Assembly (NCBI GenBank): GCA_023920165.1
Contig: CP089274.1
Coordinates: 1,736,001 to 1,800,000 of the forward strand
Length of the DNA stretch: 64,000 nucleotides
From: Curvularia clavata
Taxonomy: Eukaryota
Direction of reading: 5' to 3'
In this document: positions 16,464 through 39,257 of the stretch, piece after piece
Position numbering within the stretch: position 1 is the first letter of the stretch
How the letters are laid out: the number at the start of each line of letters is the position of its first letter
The notes under the pieces: generated by a model
What the model saw: only the letters and a program-made list of their open reading frames with translations
Databases searched by the model: none
What the model was told of the DNA's origin: nothing
Translations under genes and position numbers: made by a program

Positions 16464-16854
16464 TAGACTGGTAAATCGGGTATTTAGCTAGGGCTATCGA
16501 TTATCTTGGCCAATACTAGTCCAAATCAAGTAATTCTGGCGTCATTAGAGAGCTAGCACTCTAGTCTAAATATTACTAATATATTGTTTTAGCTTAACAC
16601 TAATAGTACTAGTGCTAGAGCTAAAAAAGGAGTAAAAATAGGGGTATACCCGACTCATAACCCAGCCCTAGGGCTCACAAACGGGCTATTAAATAACATT
16701 TGAACTAAGCTAGATACGGCTTAGCTTTATACTACATGATAGAATGCGCTAGCTTAGGGCATTAAAATGACGTCAGAATTACTCGATTTGGACTAGTCTT
16801 TGATGAGATATTGATGAAAGAAGAAAAGTGGGTCAATACCCGTTTACCAGTCTA
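16464..16854. mobile_element. MITE-like non-autonomous element (~390 bp), superfamily uncertain
   Basis: Terminal IR tagactggtaaatcgggtatt / aatacccgtttaccagtcta plus an inner IR actagtccaaatc...gcgtcatt / aatgacgtc...gatttggactagt. A partial second copy lies at 36568-36757. Confidence 0.8.
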
Positions 16855-17455
16855 TGCAGACACCACATCAATTACCGCGACGGGCAGCCGTCTAGGAGGC
16901 GCAGACACCACGTAACGCGCGCGAGGTTAAGGCTCAAATTGGTCTTATTTAATAGAGCGTGAGAAATCGCCGTAGGTCTTCTACCAATTCACTTACTAAG
17001 CAGATCGCGCAGTTAAGTAAAGAGGCTTAGCAAACAGCATATAAGATAGTGCTTCTGATAGAGAAAATTACTACTCTTTAAACGGCTCTTAACGAGTTAA
17101 ATAAGTGTAAAAGCCGCAAGCGGCAATACGTATAGACAGAAGAGACTCTTACTATAGGCGAAGTATAAAAAGTATTAGCTAAATAGACGGGTAGCAGTTG
17201 TGGCAATGGTGAGAGTGCTTTGAAGAGGGTGCGAGAAGAGAGGCGGTACGGGCGTTGTAAGCAGACTAGACACAACGCTCGTACCTATACAGTTAAAATA
17301 AATAGTGCAAGTAATAGCAGCGATTCTAATAATTAAATTAGTATATCGTAATAGTTTATTGACTGTAATAAACGACTGTAATAACGTGTCGACGTCGGCG
17401 CGCTAGTGGGGCGTGAGCCGCTCGGTTGGGTGAGTCGCACGCTTGTAAACCACGT
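16855..17455 (+). mobile_element. 3' fragment and right TIR of a Fot1/pogo element (family of 21183-23029)
   Basis: Matches ~22428-23029 and ends ...gcttgtaaaccacgt|TA. Confidence 0.9.
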
Positions 17456-18442
17456 TATATATATATCTCTAGTTTAGAGATATAATATAGATATTACTAA
17501 AAGATATCTAGAACTATAGTATCTAGCTAATTTAGTAGAGAACTAGTTTTAGAATACTGAAAATATAATAGCTATCCTAAAATTACACTTTATATCTAGT
17601 AATAAGTAAGTAGAAAGTTATACTACTTTCTACTACTTATAAATCAACAAGTAACTTTTACTAAATTTAAAATAAAATATATTAATAATTTTATTAAAAA
17701 ATCTATATTAATATTAAAATAGTTTTTCTACTTATAAAAAAAGATTATCTTTTTCTTATATATCTTTGATTCAGAATTTAAATACTAGTAGAATAATTTC
17801 TTTAATAAAAAAATATGATATTTTGATATTTTTAATACTGAATAAAAAAACAACTTTTTTAAATATAATTTAAAATCTATTTCTAAAAAATTTTATACTC
17901 TACTAATAAAGCTTTATATTAGTTAATACTACAACTACTGTCTAGATATTTATAAAATTTAATCTAAACTAGCTCTAATCTAATTTTATACCTTTTTTAA
18001 TATTTCTAGATTCTTTTTAAAGATCTCTATATTAGATAGTAAATTAACTATTAGCAATCACTATAATTATAGAAAACTTAGATATTATATAAATAAGTAT
18101 TCTATTTTATAGATTTAAAGAATCAAAATAGAGAAGAAAAAATTTAAAGAAGTATATAAATATTTATTAGAAGAAGACTAGATAGAAAACTACTAAATTT
18201 AGAAAAACTTTCTATTCTAGATATAAATAAGTATAATTTAGCTAAAATCAATCTAGCTTACTTATTTAGAAAAAAATACTTGCTAGTCTCTACTATTTGT
18301 TATTTAAAAAGGTTTAGTATTAGCGTATATTTTTTAGTCAATAATAGAGTTTAAAAGTTTTTATTTTTAAACTCTATTATCACTTATACTTTTTTTTAGC
18401 TCCTTTTAGATTCCTATTCAAAGATTTTTTTTTAAAATTATA

Positions 18443-21182: not shown

Positions 21183-23029
21183 ACGTGGTTCACAAGCGAG
21201 CGGCTCACCCAACTAAGCAGCTCACGCCCTACTAGCGCGCCAACGTCGACACTACAACGCGTTATATCTCAGCAACGCGATAATTAATTAACTTATTCTA
21301 AATTAGATCTTTAACTTACTCTTTTTAATATCTAATTATAACGTATTTAAAGCTGAAAATATACTGCCTCTTTCTATAACGTATCTTAAAGAACTTTATC
21401 TTACTAACGCGCTAGAAAATGCTTTTAACGCGACTATAAACTAAATTTAAAGTGCCTAAATAAGCTAGAAGAGAAGACTATAGTTAAGTATATTCTTAAA
21501 AAATCTACGCGAGAATTTACGCCTATAAAAGCTAATATTTAAATAATAGCTAATAAACTATTATATAAGTAGAAGAGTAATCTTACTAATAAAAACTAGA
21601 TTAATAACTTTATTAAGCGAACTTTTAAGATCTATACACGCTAGAGCCGTCTCTATAATTACTAGTAAGCTGTCTATAAAAATCTAATAGCTATCTAACG
21701 CTAGTTTAACTTAGTTTAGATAATAAAGTAGAAGTAGAGTATTATAGATAATAATATCTATAATTTTAATAAAACTAGCTTTATAATAGGTAAGATTTTA
21801 TTATAGTTAGTTATTATAGGCTTAGAAGAGTATAGTAAAAAGAAGTAGATATAGCTAGACAACTATAAGTAGATTACTACGATTTAAGACGTAGATGCGT
21901 TAGATTGCTAGATACTATTTTTTATTATCTTTGCAGGTAAGATACTTATTAATATTTAGTTTAAAAATTTATCTACTAACTAGATTCTTAAAATTAGTTC
22001 TAATAGCTAGACAAATAATTAGCTTAGTATTATTTAGTTAAAGTACTTTAATATCTATATAAAGAGGTATACTATAGATAGGTATTAACTACTAATTATT
22101 AACGGCTATAAAAGTTACTATTCTATTAAATTTTAAAATCTTTATAAAGAGAAGAATATTATTCTTCTTTATATGTCTGCGCACTTATCTTATCTATTAT
22201 AGCTTTTTAACGTCGTCTATTTTTTACTGTTAAAGTATAAGTATGACGACGCTATTTTAGGCTTGGTACGTAACTATACTAACTATATTAGTAAGAAGAC
22301 CTTTCTACTAGCTTTTAAAGCGGCTTTTAAGTAGTCTATTACGAAGGAGAATATTTAAACTAGTTTTAGAGGCGCTGGTCTAGTTCTATACAATCTATAG
22401 GCTATACTATTAAAGCTTGATATAGTGGTGTAGACACTATATTAATTACCGCGATAGGTAGCCGTCTAGAAGGCGCAGATACTACGTAATATACATAAAA
22501 TTAAGACTTAAATTAGTCTTATTTAATAGAGTATAAAAAATCGCTGTAGGTCTTCTGCCAATTCACTTACTAAGTAGATCGCGTAGTTAAGTAAAGGGGC
22601 TTAGCAAATAGCATATAAGATAGTACTTCTAATAGAGAAAATTACTACTCTTTAAGCGGCTTTTAACGAGTTAAATAAGCGTAAGAGCTATAAGTGGCGA
22701 TACGTACGGATAGAAGAGACTCTTACTATAGATAAAATATAAGAAGTGTTAGCTAAATAGGCGGGTAGTAGTTATAGCGACGGTGAGAGTGCGTCGAAGA
22801 GGGTGCGAGAAGAGAGACGGTGCGGGCGTTATAAATAGACTAGATATAACGCTCGTACTTATATAGTTAAGATAGATAGTGTAAGTAATAGCGGCAATTC
22901 TAATAATTAAATTAGTATATTATAATAGTTTATTAACTGTAATAAAAGACCGTAATAACGTGTCGACGTTGGCGCGCTGGTGGGGCGTGAGCCGCTCGGT
23001 TGGGTAAGCCGCTCGCTTGTGAACCACGT
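21183..23029 (+). mobile_element. Full-length Fot1/pogo-type DNA transposon (1847 bp), RIP-inactivated
   Basis: TA|acgtggttcacaagcgagcggctcaccc...ccgctcgcttgtgaaccacgt|TA; relic DDE transposase. Confidence 0.95.
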
Positions 23030-23983
23030 TATAGTAAATCTAAAAATAGTTTCAATTAATAATTATTTATAGATCTTTCTAAGACTATACTAATTTAATA
23101 ATTAAATTAACTCTACGTTTATTAAAATCTATATAGTCTAATTCTAAAAAACAAAACTTTTGTATGTAGTTAAATCTATATAAGAGCTAATATCCTTTGA
23201 TCTACTGAAGTAATTAAATTTGTTCTATAAAAAAACTAAATTTTATTTAAGTTAGAGTCAAAATCTCTTCGGGATAGATACTATATTATAAATAGATTTT
23301 TATTCCATTCTAACTATCTATATATATATTTTTTTCTAAATTTACTTTTATGATTTATTTTATATAGAAAGTAAATAATTATATATTTTTAGTATATTTT
23401 AGTATAAAGAAGATCTACTAACTACTATTCTAGAAATACTACTAGAACAGTATGGAATCTATCTATAAAAGATATGTATAGAATTATATAGTTTATAGAA
23501 GGATATATTCTAAATAAACCTAAGTTTTAAAAATGATCTATTCTCCACTAATCTATAATTAGCTAATATAGTATTTATTTATTAACTTTAAATAATTTTT
23601 TTAAATCTAATTTAGATACAATTAATTAGTTATTAAAGTAGGCTATTTCTATCTCTTACTATAAGGCTATTAATAATAAAAAAAATAGCTAATGTATTTA
23701 TTTAATAGATATACTAGTTTAGTTGTATATCTAAAACTATAGTTTCTAACTAAGAACTATAGTTTATTTTAAATTTTTAGTTAGATCTTTACTAGATTCT
23801 AAGTATTAAGATTAAGCTATTAACTACTTACTATAAATAATGAATAATTAGATAGAGATTAAAAATGAATATATTAATTAGAGACTATATTTATTAATAT
23901 TCTACTACTAAGATAACTAGAGTAAACTTCTACTTTTAATTAATTATATTAATATTTTATTACTATATTTTTTAACTAGTATA

Positions 23984-25837: not shown

Positions 25838-28550
25838 TATATTTATACTACATTCTATATAGTTCTAAATTCTAATAAAGTTAGAACTAAAAATATTCTA
25901 CTAATTTTCTTACTTTTATAGATAAGCTTAACTATGAAAATACTCTAAAAATAGATATTTATATATATAATACTTAGAAAATAGCTAAAAAATAAATAGA
26001 GAAAGTCTTAAATAGAATACTAACTATAGTTAATTACTATTACTATTCTTTTAATTAGAATATTAAACATACAGTTTTTCTAAGTATTTAGAACTTTATA
26101 ATAGACTATTTAAATAGAAAACTATACTCTAAATAGAAAAACTTTTTTAGAGTACTTAAAAAAGTAGAATTTTTATACCATTTAAACTTTCTTAAAAAAA
26201 TCTAGATTTATAATATTTTTACTTTAGATCTATTTTATAGATATTTTTAAAACTCTTTTCTAAGATAAAATCTTTTAGATTTGTTAAATACTTTTATTGA
26301 GAATATAAAAAAATAGAAAGTAGAAAAAATTCTAGTAATTAGATTATATTACTTAAATCTAAAATACTAAATATAGTAGATTAGATAAAATTTAGACTTT
26401 ATTTAGTATTTAATTTTAATTTCAATTTTAATTTCAATTTTAAATAAGCTCTATATGAGTTTAAACTTTTCTATACATAATATCTTACTAAGCTAAAACT
26501 TCAATATTTTTTTTAGTAAATAGAATATAGAATAGAAATAAAATATAGAGAATATAACTTTACTATAAAATAATAAAATTTGGAGAAAAAGAAATAGAAA
26601 CTTTATTAGATATTAGTAATAAAAAAATCAAAACTTAAACTTTATAACTACTAGTAAATCTTTACAATATTCTTTTACTTAAAATTTGATATCAAAGCGC
26701 TTTAGCTTAGTATTAGCTATTTTCTAGTTAACTTTACTTTTATTTTTTGTTTACGAGAAGGATAAACTAGACTATTTCTCTAACTTCTTAATTCAGAAGC
26801 TATTTTAAATACTACTCTAAGCTAATTTAGTTTTAAAATATAAAAGATGCTTTTCTATATTATTAACTATATTAACTAACTTTAAAATACTATTTTAAAT
26901 ATTCTTTAGAATCTAGTTCTAAGCGATAAAAAGCTAATTACCTAAAAGCTTCTTCTTCTAGAATTTAATAATTTAGACTCTATAAATAATATCTAAAATA
27001 GTAATAATAATTCAATTAAGTAGTATTTCTATATTAGTAGTAATTATAGAGCTATACTAAATAATAGTATATAATTTAATAGTTTTGATTAAATTATAAA
27101 GCTTTTTAAATATATGTTTAGAAATCTATCTAGATTAGCTCAACTATAAATAATAATAATAGAAAAAGATAATTTATAAAACTATACTTCTCTTTCTACT
27201 AAATATGATAAAGATATTTTTTGGAAAAATTAGATAAATAAGTATATGTAATATTGAATTAATAGCGTAACAAGACGTAGATAATTTATAGGTAGATGAA
27301 GTAATATATATCTAGTAATATAGTAAATAGATAATAAAAAAATATAGTAAAGACAAGTATATTAAGTTATAACTAACTTATTTTAATCAAAAAGTATAGA
27401 AGAGAAAACTTAGTAGTAATACTATATTATTATTAATATACCTATTAGAAAGAGTAAATCGTCTTAGTATATATAATTTAAATAGCTATTAAATTCTAAT
27501 TATAAATAAATTGCTAGCAATTTCAAATTCTAATTAAAGCGTTTAAGTCTATCTAGTCGATAAAAGTAAATAGTCTAGTAGCTAGATAGTAAAATAGTAG
27601 TACTATATAAGTACTAGAGTAGTTACTAAAGCTTAAATATAAAAACTAAAGTAAAAGATATATATAGCTATAAAAGCTATACTAGAACTGGAGTATTTTA
27701 TTACTTAGAGTAGTATAGTATGGAGAAAATCTAAAGAAATTAGAAATAAGAGACTTTATAGTATAGAAAAAAAAATAACTACTTAAACTAATAGCTATAA
27801 AGCTAGCTATCTACTAGAGAAAGAGATAATATAACTATATATAGACTATACTATACTTTAGGTCTAAACGCTTATTAAAATCTAATTAAACGCTAGATTA
27901 AATCTAATAAAATCTATATCTAGATATAAATACTAAATATCTTCTATAAATATTTAATAGATTTTTAATGTCTTTGTATACTAGGCCGATAAGTATCTAC
28001 TAAATCTAAAGTATTTCTATTATTCTACGCACTTCTATATATATTGAGTGACACTTCCTACCAGAACCAATTCGACTAGTCTTGCTCGTGCCATTATAAC
28101 TGATAGATAATTAGTATTAGTTTAGAAGATTTAATGATTATAATAAAATAGATATAGTAAAAACATTTCAAAAATCGAAGAAGCTAATAGATAATATTTA
28201 AATGATAAAAAAGTCTTTAAAGATATTAAACACGTAGTAAATAGAAATTAGTTAAAAAGTAATATTAATTAAACTACTAAACTAGAGACTAAGTTCATAA
28301 AAATAGAGTATTTATAGTCAGAAGTTATATATTATACTATTATCTTACACGTTAAATTTTCATTATAATTATAGTTAATTAAGTATAGATTTCTCTATCT
28401 ATAGTCAGATAGATAATAAGATAATTATTATTTTTTTATAGCTTAGTTCTATTTACACTAGTACCAACTTTTGAAGATAAAAGCTACATAGTTTTTAGTA
28501 TTCAAAATTTAGAGTCTAAAAGGTCTTATATTTAAGTTTCTACTTAGATA

Positions 28551-29371: not shown

Positions 29372-29642
29372 TGTAACCATGCATAGACCAAAACATACCC
29401 CAGCCAGGGCAGCTTATCAAGATCCGATTGAGAGCCGGGTCAGACCCGATGAAGACCCGCACCCAGGTATAAGTACCAGGTACCTTCCATAGATGTTCGG
29501 TAGATTTTTGATATCCTTTCGTACCAGGCCTATGAGTGTCTACCGAATCCAAGGTGTTTCTGCTGTCCCACGCACTTCCATATGCATTTGAGTGACACTT
29601 CCCACCGGAACCGATTCGACTAGTCTTGCTCGCGCCGTTACA
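29372..29642 (+). repeat. 5' LTR
   Basis: tgtaac...gttaca; direct repeat of 36297-36567; TATAAG at ~29468. Confidence 0.97.
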
Positions 29643-29937
29643 TTATATCAAAAATCTCGTCCCAGCCGGTGACGGCCTTCAAAACAATATCGCAGCTTGT
29701 TTGTTGAGACCGCGCCCAAGCCCAAGTCCCTCCGGAACCGCTCCGGATACTTCACACCGTTACGTCCCATATTCACACATAGGCGGGATCCCTTCGATCT
29801 CCCGCCGACCGAAGCCTTTGGGTTTGGACCTCCTGTACTGATTGCAGTCAGGTTAACTTCGGAGAAGTCGCGTAGATTGCGCCAGGGTAGAGACTCGGAG
29901 ACTACCAAAAACCCATCAGCCACGAAGACAACCGTCG

Positions 29938-31128
29938 ATGGCTGACCTAACCCCATCCGGCTCAGGAGAGCTTTCCAGGAAGTCGCCGCGCTTCCAAGAT
30001 TCGAAGTCAAGAGAGAAGACGCCTGGCAAACCGCCAGCCGTCGAAGAGGAAGAGGATTCGGAAGAGGATGAGACTAGCCTCCTTCGGGCAGAGATCGACA
30101 GGCTAAACGAACAAATCGCACGGCTGTCCCGCCAAAACACCGCAGCCCCAGATCAACCTCTCCCCTCCACCGAATCACCACCGACTATCGCTGAACCAAC
30201 CGAAACTCAATTCGGAAGGTACCAGTCAGCAACCCCGGACCTGCTACGTGTCAAACTCACAGAACGTACCCCTTCCATTGATAACCTTAGTGATGGAACA
30301 GAACCTACGTTCCGCCAATGGCAAGCGTCAATAGAGGACCGCTTAACAATCAATGCGGACCATTATCGGAGTGAACGCGCACGCATGGCTCTAGTCTGGG
30401 GACATACTACAGGTATCGCCAAGGGATACCTGGAACCACAGTACCTAGCCGATTCGGTGGAGGACCGGTTCCAAAACGCCGAAGATATGATAGCTACTCT
30501 AAAATCATACTTCGTATCCGGCAACGAGCAAGCGGAAAGCCGCGCTGCTTTCCACCGCTTGCTCATGGACAAAAAGGAAACCTTCGCTGAATTTAAGGCA
30601 AAATTTATAAGTGCTGCTGTCAAAGGATCCGTATCGAAGTCGGAGTGGTTTTTCTACTTATGGGAAAAAATTACCCCCGCCTTGCGTGTTCCAAACTTGG
30701 GATTTAAACACCAGTGGAACAACTCCTTTGACAAGATGATACAACACCTTACTGCCTTCGATACCGAAAGAAGGAACACTCCTTTCGGACACGGTTCGGA
30801 ACCCACTTCCAATAATTCTCGTACTCCACCAACGAAGCCCCGCGTCAGTCAATACCGGGACTACCGCCCAAACACTTATGGAGTCCGATCCGAACCAGCT
30901 CCGACCCAATCTCGCGCTCATTCTAATACCCCCAGGTTCCCTTCAAAGACCCCCGCACCGGATAGCAAACCGACTACTAGTAATTGCTATAACTGCGGAA
31001 AACCTGGACATTATGCGAATGAGTGCCCCATTCCTCGGGTTCGAGAAATCGAAGCAGAGAAGGAAGAATTCGAAGAAGCACACGAATACTTATCGGAAGA
31101 GGACCGGGCGGGAAACCACCAGGCCTAG
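29938..31128 (+). CDS. gag: Gag (396 aa) with CCHC zinc knuckle
   Basis: Open ORF containing CYNCGKPGHYANEC. Confidence 0.95.
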   Translation: MADLTPSGSGELSRKSPRFQDSKSREKTPGKPPAVEEEEDSEEDETSLLRAEIDRLNEQIARLSRQNTAAPDQPLPSTESPPTIAEPTETQFGRYQSATPDLLRVKLTERTPSIDNLSDGTEPTFRQWQASIEDRLTINADHYRSERARMALVWGHTTGIAKGYLEPQYLADSVEDRFQNAEDMIATLKSYFVSGNEQAESRAAFHRLLMDKKETFAEFKAKFISAAVKGSVSKSEWFFYLWEKITPALRVPNLGFKHQWNNSFDKMIQHLTAFDTERRNTPFGHGSEPTSNNSRTPPTKPRVSQYRDYRPNTYGVRSEPAPTQSRAHSNTPRFPSKTPAPDSKPTTSNCYNCGKPGHYANECPIPRVREIEAEKEEFEEAHEYLSEEDRAGNHQA

Positions 31129-34100
31129 GAAAACTCTCCGCCCTAGGCATGAACAAGTATGATCTAGCTAAAATTGATTTATCCCACTTGTTCGGAGGAA
31201 AACACTTCCTAGTCCCCACCGTTCTTTGTTCGAAAGGCTTTGGCGTCAGCTTGCATTCCTTAGTTGACACCGGAGCCCAAGGTTTTTTATTCTTAAATTC
31301 TGCTATTGCTCGTACCCTTTCCGGCTCTCTTCAGGTCCCCATCCGAAGACTTCCTTTCAAGATCACAGTCAAAGGATTTCAGGACCAAGTCCAAACTAGG
31401 ATAGACAAATATATTCGGTTACATATCCGAATCGATGGAAGAAAGATTTACAACTGTCCCTTCGTGATCATGGATCTAGGGACACAGGACTGCATAATCG
31501 GAATCAAGTGGTTAAGACGTTTCCAGCTTAGGCTTGATACGAGCCGGAACCGAATCGTATGGCCAGCCAAGTACCCTCCAACATATGATCCTGCGCCCCC
31601 TATTCTTGTACAGTTGAAACAATCTTCCGTCGATGCTGATGTGGAACGGGACATACAGAGGCGAGACGCACTATGGGAAAAGGACAACTACCGGAGGCAA
31701 AACAGTCCTCGCAAAGCTCTTATACGAAGAATTAGAGAATGCCTCAAACTTCCCAAGGTTCGTCTACCACCACCTGTTCCCGACCCTACTCCGGACCCTA
31801 TCCGACCAACATCTTCACCCCGTATCGCCATCATTTCGGCAAATGCTTTCCATTATTCTATGAAGCGTAAGGAAAACGAGTTCTTCACGACAAGTATCTA
31901 TGAGATCGATCGCATCTTAGAAGAGCGCATGAAGCCAGACGATCCCGAAAACGCCAAACTTGTTCGGGACCGACTTCCATCCGCTTACCATTCGTACCGC
32001 GATGTCTTCAGCAAGACAGCGGCAGAGCTACTGCCCGAACATCGCCCATACGATCATAAGATTGTGCTGACCGAACCTCTTCCGAATCAATTCAGTCCTC
32101 TGTACAAGCAGAGCACTGAAGAACTCGAAGCCACCAAGACGTTCGTAATGGAAAACCTTAGGAAAGGACACATTGACCCAAGCCACTGCCCCTTCGCCTC
32201 CCCAGTCCTTTGTGTTCGGAAGCCAAACGGAGACATTCGCATCTGTGTAGATTACCGCCGACTCAACGCAATCACCAGAAAGGATGCGTATCCGATACCG
32301 CGCATTGACGAGCTTCTAGCCCGCACCCACAAGGCGAAAATCTTCACCAAGCTCGACATACGTGCGGCATTCAACAAGATCCGAATGCACCCCGACTCGG
32401 AGGAGTACACCACGTTCCGCACTAGATACGGAACCTACAAGTCCAAAGTGCTGCCTTTTGGATTATGCAACGGCCCTGCAACATATCAACGCTACATGAA
32501 TGATGTGTTGATTGATTATCTAGACAGCTTCTGCATAGTCTACCTAGACGACATTTTGATCTACTCCGAATCGGAACCGGACCACCCCCGCCACGTACAA
32601 CAGGTCTTGGAAAGGCTTAGGCAAGCCGGTCTTCAAGTTGACATCAAGAAAAGCGAATTCCATGTCACTCGGACCAAATACCTAGGGTACATTTTGACCA
32701 ACCAAGGTCTAGAGGTGGACCCTGACAAGGTGGAAGCCCTTCAAGATTGGGTCCGACCTACCACCGTTACTGGTGTGAAGTCGTTCCTAGGGTTCACTGG
32801 GTTCTACAGGCAGTTCGTTCCTGAATACTCGCGAATTGCGAAACCTCTCCTCGCCCTCCAGAGCCCCTCAAGACCATTCGTATGGGATTCGGAGTGCGAC
32901 CAAGCCTTTGAAAGGTTAAAATCTGCACTGCTGGCAATTCCCACCTTGTACCACTACCATCCAGAGTATGATACCAAGGTGGAGACCGACGCGTCCGATG
33001 GCGTTGTGGCAGGCGTTCTTTCCCAAAAGCAGCCAAATGGAAATTGGTGTCCTGTAGCATTCTTCAGCAAGGTCCTATCCGGGTCTGAGCTGAACTGGGA
33101 AATACACGACAAAGAACTATTCGCCATTGTAACGGCGTTTAGCAAGTGGCGACCGGAGCTACTATCAATACGCTCTCGTGTCGATGTGTACTCAGACCAC
33201 CGTTCCCTCGAATACTTTATGACTACCAAAGTCCTGAATGCCCGCCAAGTGCGATGGGCGGAAGAATTGGCATCCTTTAATTTCCACATCCGATACACCC
33301 CTGGAAAGGATAATGCTCGTGCTGACATCCTCTCCCGACGAGAGCAAGATGTGGGGAATCTGAAGACAGCCCAAATCGACAACCGTTCGCGGGTCCTCCT
33401 GGGACCGCACCGACTCGATAACCGAATTAACTCCGAACTTGCTAAGACCTATGTAGCCCAACTCCAAGCGGAATCTTTCTTTTTACTTGTAGTTGAGCCT
33501 ATATCGGAGCCGATGTCCCTCGATTTGCTGGAGCTGATCGAGTCTATTCTATAAGAGAACCGAGCCTTGTTTGGGGCAGAGCGAAGGTCCCTTCTGGACA
33601 GATACCGGATCGAAAACGGACTCCTGCTCTATTCCAACCGCCTATGCATTCCTTCTACTTCTACCCTTGTGACTCGCCTTATTCGGGAAGTACACGACCA
33701 GGTATCCTCAGCGCACCCTAGTGCGAAGAAGACCTACCAACTACTGTCCCAGAAGTACTACTGGAAGGGTATGGAATCCACCTGTAAAAGGTATGTGCGG
33801 AATTGCATAGCCTGTAGGAAGGCCTATCCTAGACAGACCCGAATTCTAGGGATGATTCATCTTTTGCCAATTCCTGACCGGCCGATGCAGCACCTGTGTA
33901 TCGACTTTAAGGAATTTCCCCGAGACCGATCCGGTTACGACATGATTATGGTCGTGATCGACCGGTTATCTAAGCAGGCCATCTCCATCCCCTGCCATAA
34001 GACTATTGATGCAAGGGGAATGGCCGACCTATTCGTGTAATGGGTGTACCGATTTGGCCACACACCTGAAACTATAGTCTCTGACCGAGGACCATAGTTT

Positions 34101-35045
34101 ATTTCAAGCTTCTGGTCGGAATTCTGCCGAATCCTAGGCGTTAAGGTTAAGCTGTCAACCGCCTACTATAAAGAAACGGATGGTCAGACAGAGATTATGA
34201 ATAAGTACATCGATTAGAGGTTGCGCCCATTCGTATCCTACTACCAAGACAACTGGAGTGGACTTCTACCTTTGATCGATCGTGCTTAAATTTCCCTACC
34301 ACATTCTTCTATTGGTACGTCCCCGTACCACATCCTATATGGTTCCGAACCCCGGCAGAGTTGGGACTGGAAACATTCCACCAGCCCTCTCACCCCCACT
34401 GACAAACTCAACTATAAGGATGCATTGGAAATGGCTACCCGTATGTACGACGCATGGAAGGTGGCTAAGGAACAAATGGAGAAAGCCCAGGATAGGATGC
34501 GAACTACAGTCAACCGCCATCGCCGTTCTGTTGATTGGGATGTTGGAGATATGGTCTTCCTAAGTACCCGGAACCTCGCGTCAGACCGTCCGAGCAGGAA
34601 GCTATCCTCCAAATGGGAGGGGCCCTTCAGGGTACTTGAGAAGGTAGGACATTTATACTGCTTGGACCTTCCGAAAGGGTCCCGGATCTATGATGTCTTC
34701 GCCCCGGATCTGTTATGCAAAGATTCTTAAGACCCCCTCCTAGGATAAGAATCTCTAAGGCCCCTAGCAACTCCCATCCAAGGCGTGGAAGAATGGGAGG
34801 TAGAAGAAATCCTAGTAAGTAAGTTGTACCGCTCAAATCTAAAATACTAAGTACGGTGGGTCGGATATGACCCGGATCCTACCTGGTACCTAGTCTCAAA
34901 CTTTATGGGAGCCCCACACAAGCTCAAACTCTTCCATGAACAACATCCCACCAAACCGGGACCCCCACGTTCCCTTGGCAAGTGGATCACGGCATGGGAA
35001 TAAGGTACAGAGGATATGACTTCACTGTAGGATGACAAAATTTAA
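31110..35045 (+). pseudogene. pol: Pol (protease, RT, RNase H, integrase, chromodomain) in the -1 frame; open to 33554, then nonsense codons
   Basis: LVDTGA, YLDD, TDAS/DKEL/DHRSL, HHCC finger, SDRG, chromodomain WEVEEIL...VRWVGY. Stops at 33552, 34038, 34095, 34215, 34287 and later. The 3' end is approximate. Confidence 0.95.
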
Positions 35046-35143
35046 AGAAAAGGAAAAATAGAAACTTTATTGGGTATCAGTAATAAAGGAAACTCGGACC
35101 CGAACCCCACAACCACCAACAAACCCCCAAAATGTCACCTCAC

Positions 35144-35811
35144 TCAAAGTTCAACATCAGAGCGCTCCTGCTTAGCGTCGGCCATCTCCTGGCCAACCGC
35201 ACCCTTGTCCTCCTCAGAGGAGGAGGACAAACTAGACCATTCCTCCGACTCCTCGACCCGAGGGCCGACCCGGGCGCCACCCCGAGCCGACCTGGCCTCA
35301 AGACGCGAAAGGCGCCTTTCTATGCCATTGACTGTATCGACCAACTCCAAGATGCTGTCTCGGATGTCCCTCAGGACCTGGTTCTGGGCGACGAGGAGCT
35401 GATTGACTGAAAGCTCCTTCTCCTGGGACCTGACAACTTGGACCTTGCGGGCGATGTCCAAAGCGGCGGCAGCGATTCGATCAAGCAATACCTCCGTATC
35501 GGCATCAACTGCAGGGCCATACCGAGCGATGGCACACAACTCGATGGCATCGATTAAATCGTGAAACTCCTCGAAGACGTACTCGGGAACCTATCCGGGT
35601 TAGCCAAGCTGCAAATAGTGAAGGAAAAGAGAAGCAAACTTATAGGATCGCACTTCTCCTTCTGCTGGGTGCAATAAAGACACTTCTTGGAGGAATCGGA
35701 CGGGTAGGCGTAAGCAATGTCGAACTGACGGCGCGCCAAGGCGCGGACAGCTCGCAGATAGATGAAGCGATACGCATCTGGCAGCGCACCGGGCGGACAA
35801 CGAAGAGGCAT
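35144..35811 (-). CDS. Antisense accessory gene of the Gypsy element, 2 exons (35811-35644, 35590-35144), ~204 aa; splice donor mutated in this copy
   Basis: ATG at 35811; 53-nt intron (A)TAAGT...GCTAAC...TAG joins two ORFs in phase; CLYCTQQKEKC motif followed by a helical/coiled-coil region and an acidic tail. Confidence 0.75.
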
Positions 35812-36296
35812 AGCGAAAACGAGTGCGTTGAGTTGTAACTGACTTGTTTTGATTGAGAAGCGTGGAGGAGAAAACTCGGCGGCGACACTGTGTTGTTGTT
35901 GATATACACACTGGGGGAGCAAACAGTCTTGGCACACGTGACCTGGATAGCCGTTGGACCCTGACTACAAACGAATCGCCGGCGACTCGGGGCTCCGATC
36001 GAAGCGTCCAGGCCTGTCTGGCAGGTGAAGGCAAACGGCCTAGCGGCTAGGCAGCAAGGCAGCAGCGCCACGTGAGTACCGGAATGGTCACTGAGGCTCA
36101 GGCACAGAGGCTTAAGTGAAGGACATGCACGGCCACGGGAGCTACACCGGAACCGGAGCATCCTATTGCCCGGAGTGGCGCAGTGTGGGGAAAATCTGGG
36201 GGAAATCAGGAACGAGGGACTCTATGGTGCAGGGAAGAAGAATGACAACCGGAATAGACAGCTGTGGGACCAGCTGTCTACCGGGAGGGGGGGTAA

Positions 36297-36567
36297 TGTA
36301 ACCATGCATAGACTAAAATATACCCCAGCTAGGGCAGCTTATCAAGATCCGATTGAGAGCCGGGTCAGACCCGATGAAGACCCGCACCTAGGTATAAGTA
36401 CCAGGTACCTTCCATAGATGTTCGGTAGATTTTTGATATCCTTTCGTACCAGGCCTATGAGTGTCTACCGAATCCAAGGTGTTTCTGCTGTCCCACGCAC
36501 TTCCATATGCATTTGAGTGACACTTCCCACCGGAACCGATTCGACTAGTCTTGCTCGCGCCGTTACA
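36297..36567 (+). repeat. 3' LTR
   Basis: Differs from the 5' LTR at four visible sites (36314, 36319, 36330, 36389), all CpA->TpA. Confidence 0.97.
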
Positions 36568-37359
36568 TCGGGTATACCCCTATTTTTACTCCTTTTTTAG
36601 CTCTAGCACCAGTATTATTAGTGTTAAGCTAAAATAATATATTAGTAATATTTAGACTAGAGTGCTAGCTCTCTAATGACGTCAGAATTACTTGATTTGG
36701 ACTAGTATTGGCCAAGATAATCGATAGCCCTAGCTAAATACCCGATTTACCAGTCTAGTGTAGACACTACATTAATTACCGCGATAGATAGCCGCCTAGG
36801 AGGCGTAGACACTATATAACGCGCGCGAGATTAAGGCTTAAATTAGTCTTATTTAATAGAGCGTGAGAAATTGCTATAAGTCTTCTACTAATTTACTTAC
36901 TAAGTAGATCGCATAGTTGAGTAAAAGGGCTTAGCAAATAGTATATAAGATAGTGCTTCTAATAGAGAAAATTACTACTCTTTAAGCAGCTCTTAATAAG
37001 TTAAATAAATATAAGAGCTATAAGCAGCGATACGTATAGATAGAAGAGACTCTTACTATAGGCAAAGTATAAGAAGTATTAGCTAAATAGGCGGGTAGTA
37101 GTCGTGGCGACGGTAAGAGTGCGTTGAAGAGGGTGCGAGGAGAGAGGCGGTGCGGGCGTTATAAGCAGACTGGATATAACGCTTATATCTATACAGTTAA
37201 AATAGATAGTATAAATAATAGCAGCGATTCTAATAATTAAATTAATATATTATAATAGTTTATTAACTGTGATAAAAGACCGTAATAACGTGTCGACGTC
37301 GGCGCGCTGGTGGGGCGTGAGCCGCTCGGTTGGGTGAGCCGCTCGCTTGTGAACCACGT
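36568..37359 (+). mobile_element. Half MITE (36568-36757) fused to a pogo 3' fragment and right TIR (36758-37359)
   Basis: 36568-36757 is the reverse complement of 16464-16653; the rest matches ~22427-23029. Confidence 0.9.
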
Positions 37360-37384
37360 TAGAGCTAAATATAACACTGTGAAC

Positions 37385-37654
37385 TGTAACCATCTATTGC
37401 CCAAGACCCATCCCAAATGAGACAGCTCATTGAGATCCGACTAAGAACTGGGGCAGATCCGATGAAGATCCGTACCAAGGTATAAGTACCTGGTCTATCC
37501 AATAGCTGTTCGGTAGATTTTCGATATCCTTTCCTACCAGGCCTATGAGTGTCTACCAAATTTAAGGTAATTCTGCTGTCCCACGCACTCCCATACGCAT
37601 CTGAGTGACAGTTCCCACCGGAACCGATTCAACTAGTTTGCTCGTGCCGTTACA
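37385..37654 (+). mobile_element. Solo LTR of a related Gypsy subfamily
   Basis: tgtaac...gttaca, 270 bp, diverged from 29372-29642; near-perfect 5-bp TSD TGAAC/TGAGC. Confidence 0.9.
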
Positions 37655-39257
37655 TGAGCAGGTCTATCTTCTCCAATTTAAAGGTCGTGTAAACTGCAGC
37701 GCAATTTAGGTGGTTAGGACAACGGTGGGTCGTACGATTTGTTAACACCACCTCGCAATTAGGAAAAGACTTGTTTTTGTCGAAGCAATATGTTCGTATT
37801 GATAGGTCGAAAAGAGACAGCGAATTTCATAGTCTACTCCACAAATTATTGGCCGCATTCTAGGAAGGGGCACTACTGTTTCGTTTGGCTGATGTTACTA
37901 CCGTTCAGGCTTTAGTCGGTTCAGGCGAACCTATGGAATAAGCAAGGGAGAAGTATCATAGGCGAGCCGGGTCATCGCCGATTCGCCAAAGAGTCAAATG
38001 TGGCACAACGTATGCTGTGGGAAAACGTACCTTGTTTTGATTGCTGTCGCTTATGTCCGAGAAAAGGAAATTATCCCAACCGGCGACGCCTCATGGCGGT
38101 TTCGTGACTGAGCTGAGCTTGGGAAAAGCAACTGCAATCGCATTGGACGCGATAGTCAATAGAGTTCATGTGACTGAGCGGATTGCGATAGGCGCATGTG
38201 CAGGCGCAGGTTGTGGATGAAAAACAAGGACAAGAAAAATCACCTAACTTTAACTCACGAGTTGTGTGATAACCTTTGGTCATGCTCTATCGTCGCGATC
38301 GGCGGATGTGGGGTCTAGTGTTTCCGCCGTTAGACCCTGTACTACGTAAAAACCTCCGGTTGGTTGTGTGTAGGATGAGTGTTCTGGCCACCGCCCCTAT
38401 ACAATACATACAGCGGAGGCTGCAGGTTGTGTCACAAAAATTTGTTATTTGTAGAGCATTGACTATAGCTATATTCGCAAACTAACTTGTTCAATCTCGT
38501 TGGCGTTTTGGCGTATGTAAGTGTTCGTATGAGTAGCTAAGTTCACAGACTTAGCGCTCGACATGCGTTTTGAATTCTTCAAGACTCGATATGGATGGGT
38601 TGTTGGTGTCCTATTAGCACTCTGAACTTTTGATGCACCTGAATATGTCGTCATCTAGGATTAGTGTAAATGCTGATCGATGTCCATTATTTCCTGCATA
38701 AGCTCCCTGCTATAGACGGGCCGGACTGCGCACCGCATCCCGTGCGTTACTTTGCGCCGCTTTGCCTATTGCATTCCAGCTATGGAAATGAACTGAGCGA
38801 TGACGATATCAGACCATCCAGGTAATTTTAGCTCACAAGTGACTTTCAACTTAATCTATGGCGCCACAACAAACACCCGAACCAAACTCCTCCAGGTTAC
38901 GCCAAGCTGACATGCCCATGCAGGTATCCTCCCAACAAACGCATGGCGGCACTTCCACGAACAGATTCCGCTGCAACCGAGTGGCCTTGGTGGCGGCACC
39001 AATGGCCCCCCCAACTTACCCCTTCCCAAGACTAGTCTAAGCTACCTAGTTGATTCTGCGACATGACCTGGTTTGTTCTGCCCAATTTAATGGCACACTG
39101 CTTCAAGCCTCACGTAAGCTTTCAGTATATAGTCTAGACAATACCACCGTACTCCAAAGTGGTCATATTCCATGAAACCTATCCTTTGCCTTGATATTCC
39201 AGTTTCACTTGCCCATTGGTCTTCTTTCGAACTGTTCGCTCCTATCACTCCACGACC

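Follow-up and report, generated by a model that had tools for sequence, protein, structure and literature searches.

Why would a retrotransposon carry a gene with an intron on the strand opposite to its own gag and pol? The question is raised by a stretch of 64,000 nucleotides from the fungus Curvularia clavata (contig CP089274.1 of assembly GCA_023920165.1, positions 1,736,001 to 1,800,000 of the forward strand), referred to here as the window. Within it, a Ty3/Gypsy element harbors a gene at 35144-35811, between the pol stop at 35043 and the start of the 3' long terminal repeat (LTR) at 36297, on the strand opposite to gag-pol. An earlier note, made from these letters alone, took this for an antisense, intron-containing extra gene of a fungal chromovirus family, and that description is borne out by linkage to pol, a conserved intron, a bias towards synonymous changes and a chromodomain in the pol of relatives. 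In all likelihood this is a true gene, belonging to a lineage of Ty3/Gypsy chromoviruses that occurs in Pleosporales and Leotiomycetes, and the window copy of it has been inactivated by repeat-induced point mutation (RIP). That it encodes a dimeric, DNA-binding regulator that works in the nucleus on LTR or host promoters is a more tentative suggestion.

The antisense gene and its relatives

The window letters agree with the gene structure that had been proposed, in which two minus-strand open reading frames (ORFs) join in phase across a short intron. Translation of the joined exons gives 204 amino acids, matching the estimated length and the quoted protein sequence. The parts of the gene and its immediate surroundings are as follows.

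35811-35644, minus strand: exon 1, with its ATG at 35811, 56 codons, ending ...SSKKCLYCTQQKEKCDP (...KCDP)
35644-35811, minus strand: exon 1 features, a cysteine module of Cys18 (Tyr here), Cys44, Cys47 and Cys54, and the motif SKKCxYCTxQxEKCxP
35643-35591, minus strand: intron of 53 nt, phase 0, with an ATAAGT donor, a GCTAAC branch site at 35604-35599 and a TAG acceptor
35590-35144, minus strand: exon 2, 148 codons and a stop, encoding a helical hairpin, a heptad helix and an acidic, Ser-rich tail
35046-35143: gap of 98 nt separating the stop codon of pol from that of the antisense gene, the two genes being convergent
35812-36296, minus strand: region of 485 nt upstream of the antisense gene, putatively its own promoter and leader

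The heptad-like segment comprises residues 129-154 of the product. Counting over residues 111-165, Leu, Ile, Val or Met occupy 11 of the 16 a/d positions in the best register and at most 7 in any other, and the 44 residues of the tail (161-204) include 12 Asp/Glu, 8 Ser and 5 Lys/Arg; both the heptad-like segment and the acidic tail are thereby confirmed. The TATA-like element that had been placed near 35900 is a GTATATC at 35907-35901, about 95 nt 5' of the antisense ATG, and an AATAAA lies at 35071-35066 on the minus strand, 73 nt past the stop. TATA-like elements occur upstream in the window, L001 and L004 (two of the relatives introduced below), and several loci have CA-rich leaders, as read by eye with no test against chance. 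A promoter belonging to the gene itself is plausible in the 485 nt that separate its ATG from the 3' LTR.

How widespread is such a gene? A search with exon 2 alone found a 204-residue Curvularia clavata protein (P0003) that is 96% identical to the window product, has the same join (...KCDP followed by VPEYV...) and keeps Cys18. When P0003 was used in a HMMER search of the whole library, 55 proteins matched at E<=1e-3, 16 of them at E<=1e-10; one of the 55 (P0036), a repetitive helical protein, looks unrelated. The family members encode about 150-250 amino acids, and every named one is labelled "hypothetical" or "uncharacterized". Their sources are Pleosporales (Curvularia, Bipolaris, Clathrospora, Polyplosphaeria, Plenodomus with four paralogous gene models, Didymella and Zopfia) and Leotiomycetes (Diplocarpon, Pseudogymnoascus, Stipitochalara and Cadophora). 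In an alignment of 18 members, R20, S41, K43, C47, C54 and P58 are invariant, and C18, C44 and P56 are nearly so. Judged by these alignments, the antisense genes form a family that is absent from Pfam and conserved across both groups. With a profile of the Leotiomycete subfamily, no more than four proteins were retrieved, all already known, and the ESM Atlas gave three unnamed Ascomycota clusters (157, 63 and 77 members; scores 0.88-0.90) with no Pfam family, which serve as a lead only.

Genes of this family lie scattered through annotation as "hypothetical proteins", many of whose models read through the intron: they run past the Pro as "VS..." (...P-V-S...), which is translated, unspliced GTAAGT. 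Four proteins from Logan/ENA contigs (P0006, P0008, P0016 and P0044) instead have the spliced join, Cys-x-Pro and then Val, Ile or Leu followed by Pro, without an intron. If ORFs were called there without intron models, the contigs behind them are spliced RNA or intron-less copies.

The link to Gypsy pol had been named as a point to check, and it held. In both window copies (the older of which is described below), the gene is placed after pol and before the 3' LTR. A metagenome scan with a narrower family alignment (A2) yielded six further loci, L001-L006, in five of which (L001-L004 and L006) the antisense gene stands tail-to-tail with the integrase C-terminus of pol; the contig of the sixth ends 240 nt past the match. 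Long open pol frames are present in L003 (1279 aa), L004 (1223 aa) and L002 (913 aa, open-ended). The identity of the extra gene to P0003 (30-56%) declines together with that of pol (54-76%). An antisense frame, intron position and motif that are kept in relatives at 25-56% identity are more than an accident.

The intron is as constant as the gene. It follows directly after the Cys-x-Pro codon in all six loci, and in all six the frame is kept. Their donors are GTAAGT (four), GTAAGA (one) and GTAAGG (one), and the introns are 45-54 nt long. Counting the window, the intron would cause a frame shift or an in-frame stop in six of seven copies, and a YTRAY branch-like motif stands 9-11 nt 5' of the acceptor, also in six of seven. 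The hallmarks of a spliceosomal intron (GT, YTRAY near YAG, short length and removal for frame) are thus found in the relatives, as far as sequence goes. An intron that is antisense to the element is not removed from the reverse-transcribed genomic RNA, which is of the sense strand. Because it stays in that RNA, it is inherited by new copies, and the family provides a natural example of an antisense intron passing through retrotransposition. In the Leotiomycete-type loci (L003 524-1330, L004 2898-3560 and L006 174-905) there is an apparent second in-frame coding intron, which is 57 nt long in L006 (GTGGGT...CAG) and starts with GTAAGT in L004; upstream of the ATG in these loci, GTAAGT...CTAAC...AG units resemble introns of a 5' untranslated region (UTR).

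Is it the protein that is being conserved? The most informative pair is L003 and L006, which are 97.2% identical overall. They differ at 12 of 339 exon bases, 11 of the differences being synonymous, with nonsynonymous divergence (dN) of 0.004 and synonymous divergence (dS) of 0.146 over 113 codons. All six differences in exon 1 fall at third codon positions, and intron 1 differs at 9 of 54 positions, a rate about five times that of the exons. The dN/dS ratios of the other pairs are 0.27 (L004/L005), 0.39 (L001/L002) and 0.17 (window/L001), with dS near saturation in these three. Across the four pairs, the range of 0.03-0.39 lies well below 1, as a selected gene should have it and as the earlier note had proposed to check; dS could not be estimated in two of seven pairs. 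Since the substitutions are biased to synonymous sites and the intron evolves faster than the exons, the pattern points firmly to purifying selection on a protein read from the antisense strand.

The host element and the damage to the window copy

The element that carries the gene is a young Ty3/Gypsy element spanning 29372-36568.

29372-29643, plus strand: 5' LTR (TG...CA), a 272-nt direct repeat 98.5% identical to the 3' LTR
29938-31128, plus strand: gag, 396 aa, with a CCHC zinc knuckle (Pfam zf-CCHC, E 1.1e-07)
31023-35045, plus strand: pol (protease, PR; reverse transcriptase, RT; RNaseH; integrase, IN; SH3; chromodomain), one frame with its natural stop at 35043
36297-36568, plus strand: 3' LTR, the 272-nt repeat partner of the 5' LTR
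26320-27814, minus strand: old, heavily RIPed copy (GC 19%) of the pol-end, antisense-gene and upstream region

The chromovirus layout is present, with LTRs, a CCHC gag and the pol order PR-RT-RNaseH-IN. Pfam matches in the window pol are RVT_1, RT_RNaseH, Integrase_H2C2 and a Tf2-type SH3 (SH3_Tf2-1), and the intact pol of L002 aligns to it in a single-frame tblastn over 912 aa at 75.8%. Pfam Chromo matches the end of pol in relatives, above the cut-off of 25.1 bits in L004 (26.2 bits) and just below it in L002 (21.6) and L003 (21.9). The tail of the window pol, which is interrupted by RIP stops, is colinear with the chromodomain and reads EEWEVEEIL...VRWVGY. A polypurine tract, GGGAGGGGGGG, lies at 36283-36293 on the plus strand, at the far end of the 485-nt upstream region.

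What has happened to the window copy? Assembled contigs of four public runs (X1, X2, X5 and X10), which carry no strand information and from which rare forms are dropped, were aligned on 34700-36400. The donor ATAAGT had been read as one RIP-type change away from GTAAGT, and indeed all four runs have, at its first base (35643), the base that gives GTAAGT; the change in the window is in a TpA context. Together with the GT donors found at the same codon in the six relatives, this settles the expectation that copies free of RIP should have a GT there. Two Tyr codons in exon 1 had likewise been suspected of being RIPed Cys codons, which holds for one of them. At 35759, the three runs (of four) that cover the site all have the base that turns Tyr18 into Cys, a residue nearly invariant in the family. 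The other, Tyr34, was rejected as a RIP hit: it aligns with a Cys of the Leotiomycete subfamily, yet the position is Tyr, Phe, Ser or His in all Pleosporales relatives.

The window and run X1 show 25 listed differences, of which 20 are T in the window and C in the run; 16 of these, the donor and Tyr18 included, are in TpA context. The four differences between the LTRs are all CpA in the 5' LTR and TpA in the 3' LTR. The window pol has 10 premature TAA/TAG stops, all from 33552 onward, and those at 34746, 35001 and 35028 have C in the other runs. From the differences to the runs, the CpA/TpA pattern of the LTRs and the C at the pol stops in the runs, it follows that the element inserted recently and was then lightly RIPed, mainly in its 3' half. 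By the same reading, it was RIP-type changes that killed the window copy: GT to AT at the donor, the near-invariant Cys18 to Tyr and the 10 premature stops in pol. The antisense exons, on the other hand, have no stop codons. One RIP-type transition at the donor and one Cys-to-Tyr change are enough to silence such a gene.

The old copy, in which the earlier note had also seen this region, is colinear with 34800-36296 (E 3.7e-100), the identity being 58.9% across 1497 nt. Leaving C>T and G>A changes out of account raises it to 93-96%, and both exons align without a gap (0 gaps in 615 exon bases). A further trace of RIP is seen in a Curvularia clavata gene model, P0004 (yc1106_00577, 178 aa), whose residues are exactly those of the window and which has 28 residues of exon 2 deleted. 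Its junction, ...CDP-I-I-DADTE, fits a cryptic GT donor 4 nt downstream of the mutated one (35639-35638). P0004 is a mis-model of the RIP-damaged form of the gene, and an example of how a RIP-hit splice site misleads gene finders.

The surroundings of the element are a mixture. No target-site duplication flanks it (GTCAG on the left, TCGGG/CGGGT on the right), and for this reason the element may be a recombinant or lie within a nest of older insertions. To its right, at 36675-37361, is a 0.7-kb repeat that is 86-88% identical to 16766-17457 and 22428-23043, followed at 37385-37655 by another copy of the LTR, the third, which has diverged to about 82% identity with those of the young element. 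The sequence after the 5' LTR (29643-29670), TTATATCAAAAATCTCG..., is without the usual TGG start of a tRNA primer-binding site. Positions 1-29000 of the window form an AT-rich island (GC 18-33%) in which numerous repeats, all heavily RIPed, are related to one another; it adjoins a region of normal GC beginning at the young element. Between 39000 and 64000 there are housekeeping genes, for an R3H/G-patch protein, an Atg4-type peptidase C54, histone H2A, a 2-oxoacid dehydrogenase E2 with a lipoyl domain, a CLP1-like P-loop protein, RNA polymerase I subunit A34.5 and a Mto1/centrosomin-like protein. None of the 15 long ORFs scanned in this gene-rich part is a Zn_clus gene.

The predicted protein and rival explanations

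What does the gene make? An AlphaFold2 model based on the 18-row alignment (mean predicted local distance difference test score, pLDDT, 79.2) has a compact module up to residue 58 and a disordered tail. Helices are predicted at 59-80, 87-113 and 118-160, with short ones beginning at Cys18 and Cys44. A separate model of the first 55 residues of L002 (34 rows, pLDDT 81.4) was searched against 48,161 representative chains. Z>=2 was reached by just three of these, all at low Z and all Zn2Cys6 DNA-binding domains: GAL4 (Z 2.7, root-mean-square deviation (rmsd) 3.7 Å, 40 residues aligned), Leu3 (Z 2.2, rmsd 2.1 Å, 37 residues aligned) and Pho7 (Z 2.1). A low Z is to be expected for so small a domain, and the specificity for Zn2Cys6 folds is notable. 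Two Pseudogymnoascus (P. destructans) members, moreover, bear the UniRef name "Zn(2)-C6 fungal-type domain-containing protein". Cys18, Cys44, Cys47 and Cys54 presumably correspond to the ligands of one of GAL4's two zinc ions, and by that analogy the Pleosporales module is plausibly a single-zinc remnant. Zinc binding would fit the four near-invariant Cys and the weak but specific GAL4-like fold match of the model, and oligomerization would fit the heptad helix.

In many relatives, a basic cluster (KKRRR, KRKR) precedes the acidic Ser/Asp/Glu tail; it is weak in the window protein. At their C-terminal ends, P0009, P0019 and L002 (stop at L002 2287) have a short hydrophobic run followed by Ser/Asp/Glu (VVVESDSE, VVVVESDSE and VVGVESESD), with the basic cluster before it. 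Such tails resemble phospho-regulated motifs for interaction with SUMO (small ubiquitin-like modifier). The window protein is without the hydrophobic run.

Put together, these features suggest the following scheme. Transcription of the antisense gene would start from a promoter of its own, within the 485 nt that precede the ATG. The product would be a small nuclear regulator with the build of a zinc-cluster transcription factor: a GAL4-like cysteine module, with six Cys in Leotiomycetes and reduced in Pleosporales to four Cys able to hold one zinc, then helices with a heptad segment for dimerization, a patch of basic residues (present in many relatives) and an acidic tail rich in Ser. By binding DNA, either in the LTR of the element or in promoters of the host, it would tune the expression of the element. 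A regulator of this kind is a possibility to be entertained with caution. Doubt is somewhat greater about the wider proposal, that elements in two classes of Ascomycota encode their own miniature GAL4-type factor, which switches LTR or host promoters.

Several results weigh against this interpretation. The fold matches, at Z 2.1-2.7, are far below the level that can be trusted on its own. With the whole model, Foldseek gave no match at E<=1e-3, and the best hits of a VIA search (Z 6.1) were generic helical hairpins, within the noise for helical proteins. Alignments A1 (18 members) and A3 (15) together hold 27 distinct family proteins, and Pfam Zn_clus (PF00172) matched none of these at E<=1 and none of seven sequences (six further ones) at E<=10. 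Two profiles returned only designed or helical proteins from the PDB, and no sequence relatives. The Zn2Cys6 pattern is CX2CX6CX5-12CX2CX6-8C. The branch to which the window belongs does not follow its six-Cys arrangement, having only Cys18, Cys44, Cys47 and Cys54, and the Leotiomycete branch, with C-x2-C-x11-C-x9-C-x2-C-x6-C (the third Cys in 11 of 15 members), has a first spacing that is not canonical. The window copy itself cannot make the protein, because its donor is AT and its Cys18 is replaced by Tyr. Finally, a spliced junction in RNA, which had been named as a check, was absent from the contigs: those of all four runs cross the intron unspliced and contain no joints. This includes X5, the one run recorded as RNA, of which a contig at 35556-35824 is unspliced across the intron. 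Since the contigs give no strand and drop rare forms, they neither show nor exclude expression, and sense-strand genomic RNA would look identical.

Foldseek with the N-terminal module gave nothing meaningful. Pfam DUF3716 had no match in the 27 proteins at E<=1, Pfam on both exons and these 27 proteins gave only sub-threshold, coiled-coil-like noise, and NCBIfam gave no match. When the LTRs of the window and L002 were aligned for CGG-type sites, there were conserved blocks and nothing interpretable.

If the module does derive from a zinc-cluster protein, could it be a mere passenger, a fragment of a host zinc-cluster regulator that was captured by an ancestral element and has no role in its life cycle? 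GAL4-type domains, which the N-terminal module resembles, are typical of fungal host transcription factors, two members are named Zn(2)-C6 by UniRef, and the product is without a demonstrated function. Against this, the open gene and its intron have been kept in elements whose intact pol is only 54-76% identical to that of the window, and a useless gene would decay over such divergence instead of retaining dN/dS of 0.03-0.39. Nor did any stand-alone host homologue turn up, the genomic context of annotated fungal proteins being outside the comparison. A passenger is accordingly an improbable explanation.

A role at the level of RNA rather than protein is another way to account for an antisense gene: what matters would be the antisense transcription itself, through double-stranded RNA, small RNAs or interference with the genomic RNA, and the protein would be incidental. 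With only 98 nt between the convergent stops, the 3' UTR probably overlaps the sense RNA, and Gypsy elements of Botrytis are described as major sources of small RNAs in PMC8365987. Such an effect would not, however, lead to exon differences that are synonymous in 11 of 12 cases between L003 and L006, with those in exon 1 all at third positions, nor to an intron that evolves about five times faster than the exons and Cys and Pro residues that are invariant across 25-50% identity. As the sole explanation it is unlikely; an RNA-level effect may exist in addition to selection on the protein. That the minus-strand ORFs and intron-like signals arose by accident in non-coding DNA behind pol can hardly be believed, even with an AT donor in the window and no spliced RNA seen, given 55 relatives with a conserved motif, an intron position shared by six of six loci, dN/dS well below 1 and GT in four of four runs.

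Comparison with known systems

The reading that survives best, a selected antisense gene of a chromovirus, has precedents in its layout. The extra genes of LTR retrotransposons are poorly understood, and the antisense ones behind pol are without known function in plants or fungi, according to PMC7264820. The earlier note had mentioned antisense extra ORFs in some plant Gypsy lineages. Such plant cases do exist; overlooked was a fungal one, the brtn gene of Boty (PMC8365987, PMC7264820). As cited in PMC8365987, PMC7264820, PMC4227169 and PMC5987419, brtn was published in 2011 (Virology 417:248); it is carried antisense by Boty-like elements of Botrytis cinerea, behind pol and ahead of the 3' LTR, and is also reported for Sclerotinia. 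Boty, as portrayed there, shares with the present element that it is a fungal Ty3/Gypsy with gag, pol, a chromodomain and an opposite-strand gene between pol and the 3' LTR.

The family described here also reaches the Leotiomycetes, the class that contains Botrytis. Its hosts are mainly Pleosporales, on the other hand, and the likeness to brtn is one of layout. Among the named matches of the family searches, there was no protein named BRTN and none from Botrytis or Sclerotinia. The literature consulted yielded no further fungal antisense ORFs beyond brtn, and the 2011 paper, or supplementary files, may already describe features that are treated as new here. The layout is in any case already known from brtn, and the window family is a further case of this category.

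In plants, the corresponding category is aORF-3R, found in Grande1, RIRE2, Retand and PvRetro13, where it is said to be conserved within families like other element proteins and to have no known function (PMC7264820). Its position and orientation, as given there, are those of the antisense gene in the window. The comparison is one of layout: these are plant elements, and Retand is called a non-chromovirus lineage in the same review (PMC7264820). The word "intron" is absent from the main text of this review. Of what defines the aORF-3R and brtn type, the position and the opposite strand are found here in the window and in five of six loci (the contig of the sixth being too short to tell), and the conserved presence in both window copies and in six of six loci. 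What the present family adds is its breadth, a fixed intron position, purifying selection and a testable hypothesis of a zinc-cluster regulator.

How close is the product to a GAL4-type Zn2Cys6 protein? Both have a CX2CX6C half-motif, and the short helices at Cys18 and Cys44 are placed like those of the two halves of the cluster. The parts of GAL4 follow in the order DNA-binding, dimerization and activation, and the cysteine module, heptad helix and acidic tail of the antisense product follow in the same order, as in a small zinc-cluster activator. The differences are the missing Pfam Zn_clus match, the four Cys in the branch of the window and the x11 in place of x6 in the six-Cys branch; the product is also much smaller than the zinc-cluster regulators of the host, and its gene belongs to a retrotransposon.

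The last comparison, with HBZ of human T-cell leukemia virus type 1 (HTLV-1), is an analogy of layout only. HBZ is a retroviral gene, spliced and antisense, which is transcribed from the 3' end of the virus and encodes a leucine-zipper protein that regulates viral transcription. The window gene is likewise antisense and at the 3' end of a retroelement, with splicing, a dimerizing helix and regulator-like domains by prediction. There is no homology between the two; HBZ begins within the 3' LTR and has an established function, whereas the window gene is known from sequence alone. If the regulator proposed here is real, it would be a fungal counterpart of the retroviral transactivators, and a route by which transposons could rewire the gene regulation of their hosts.

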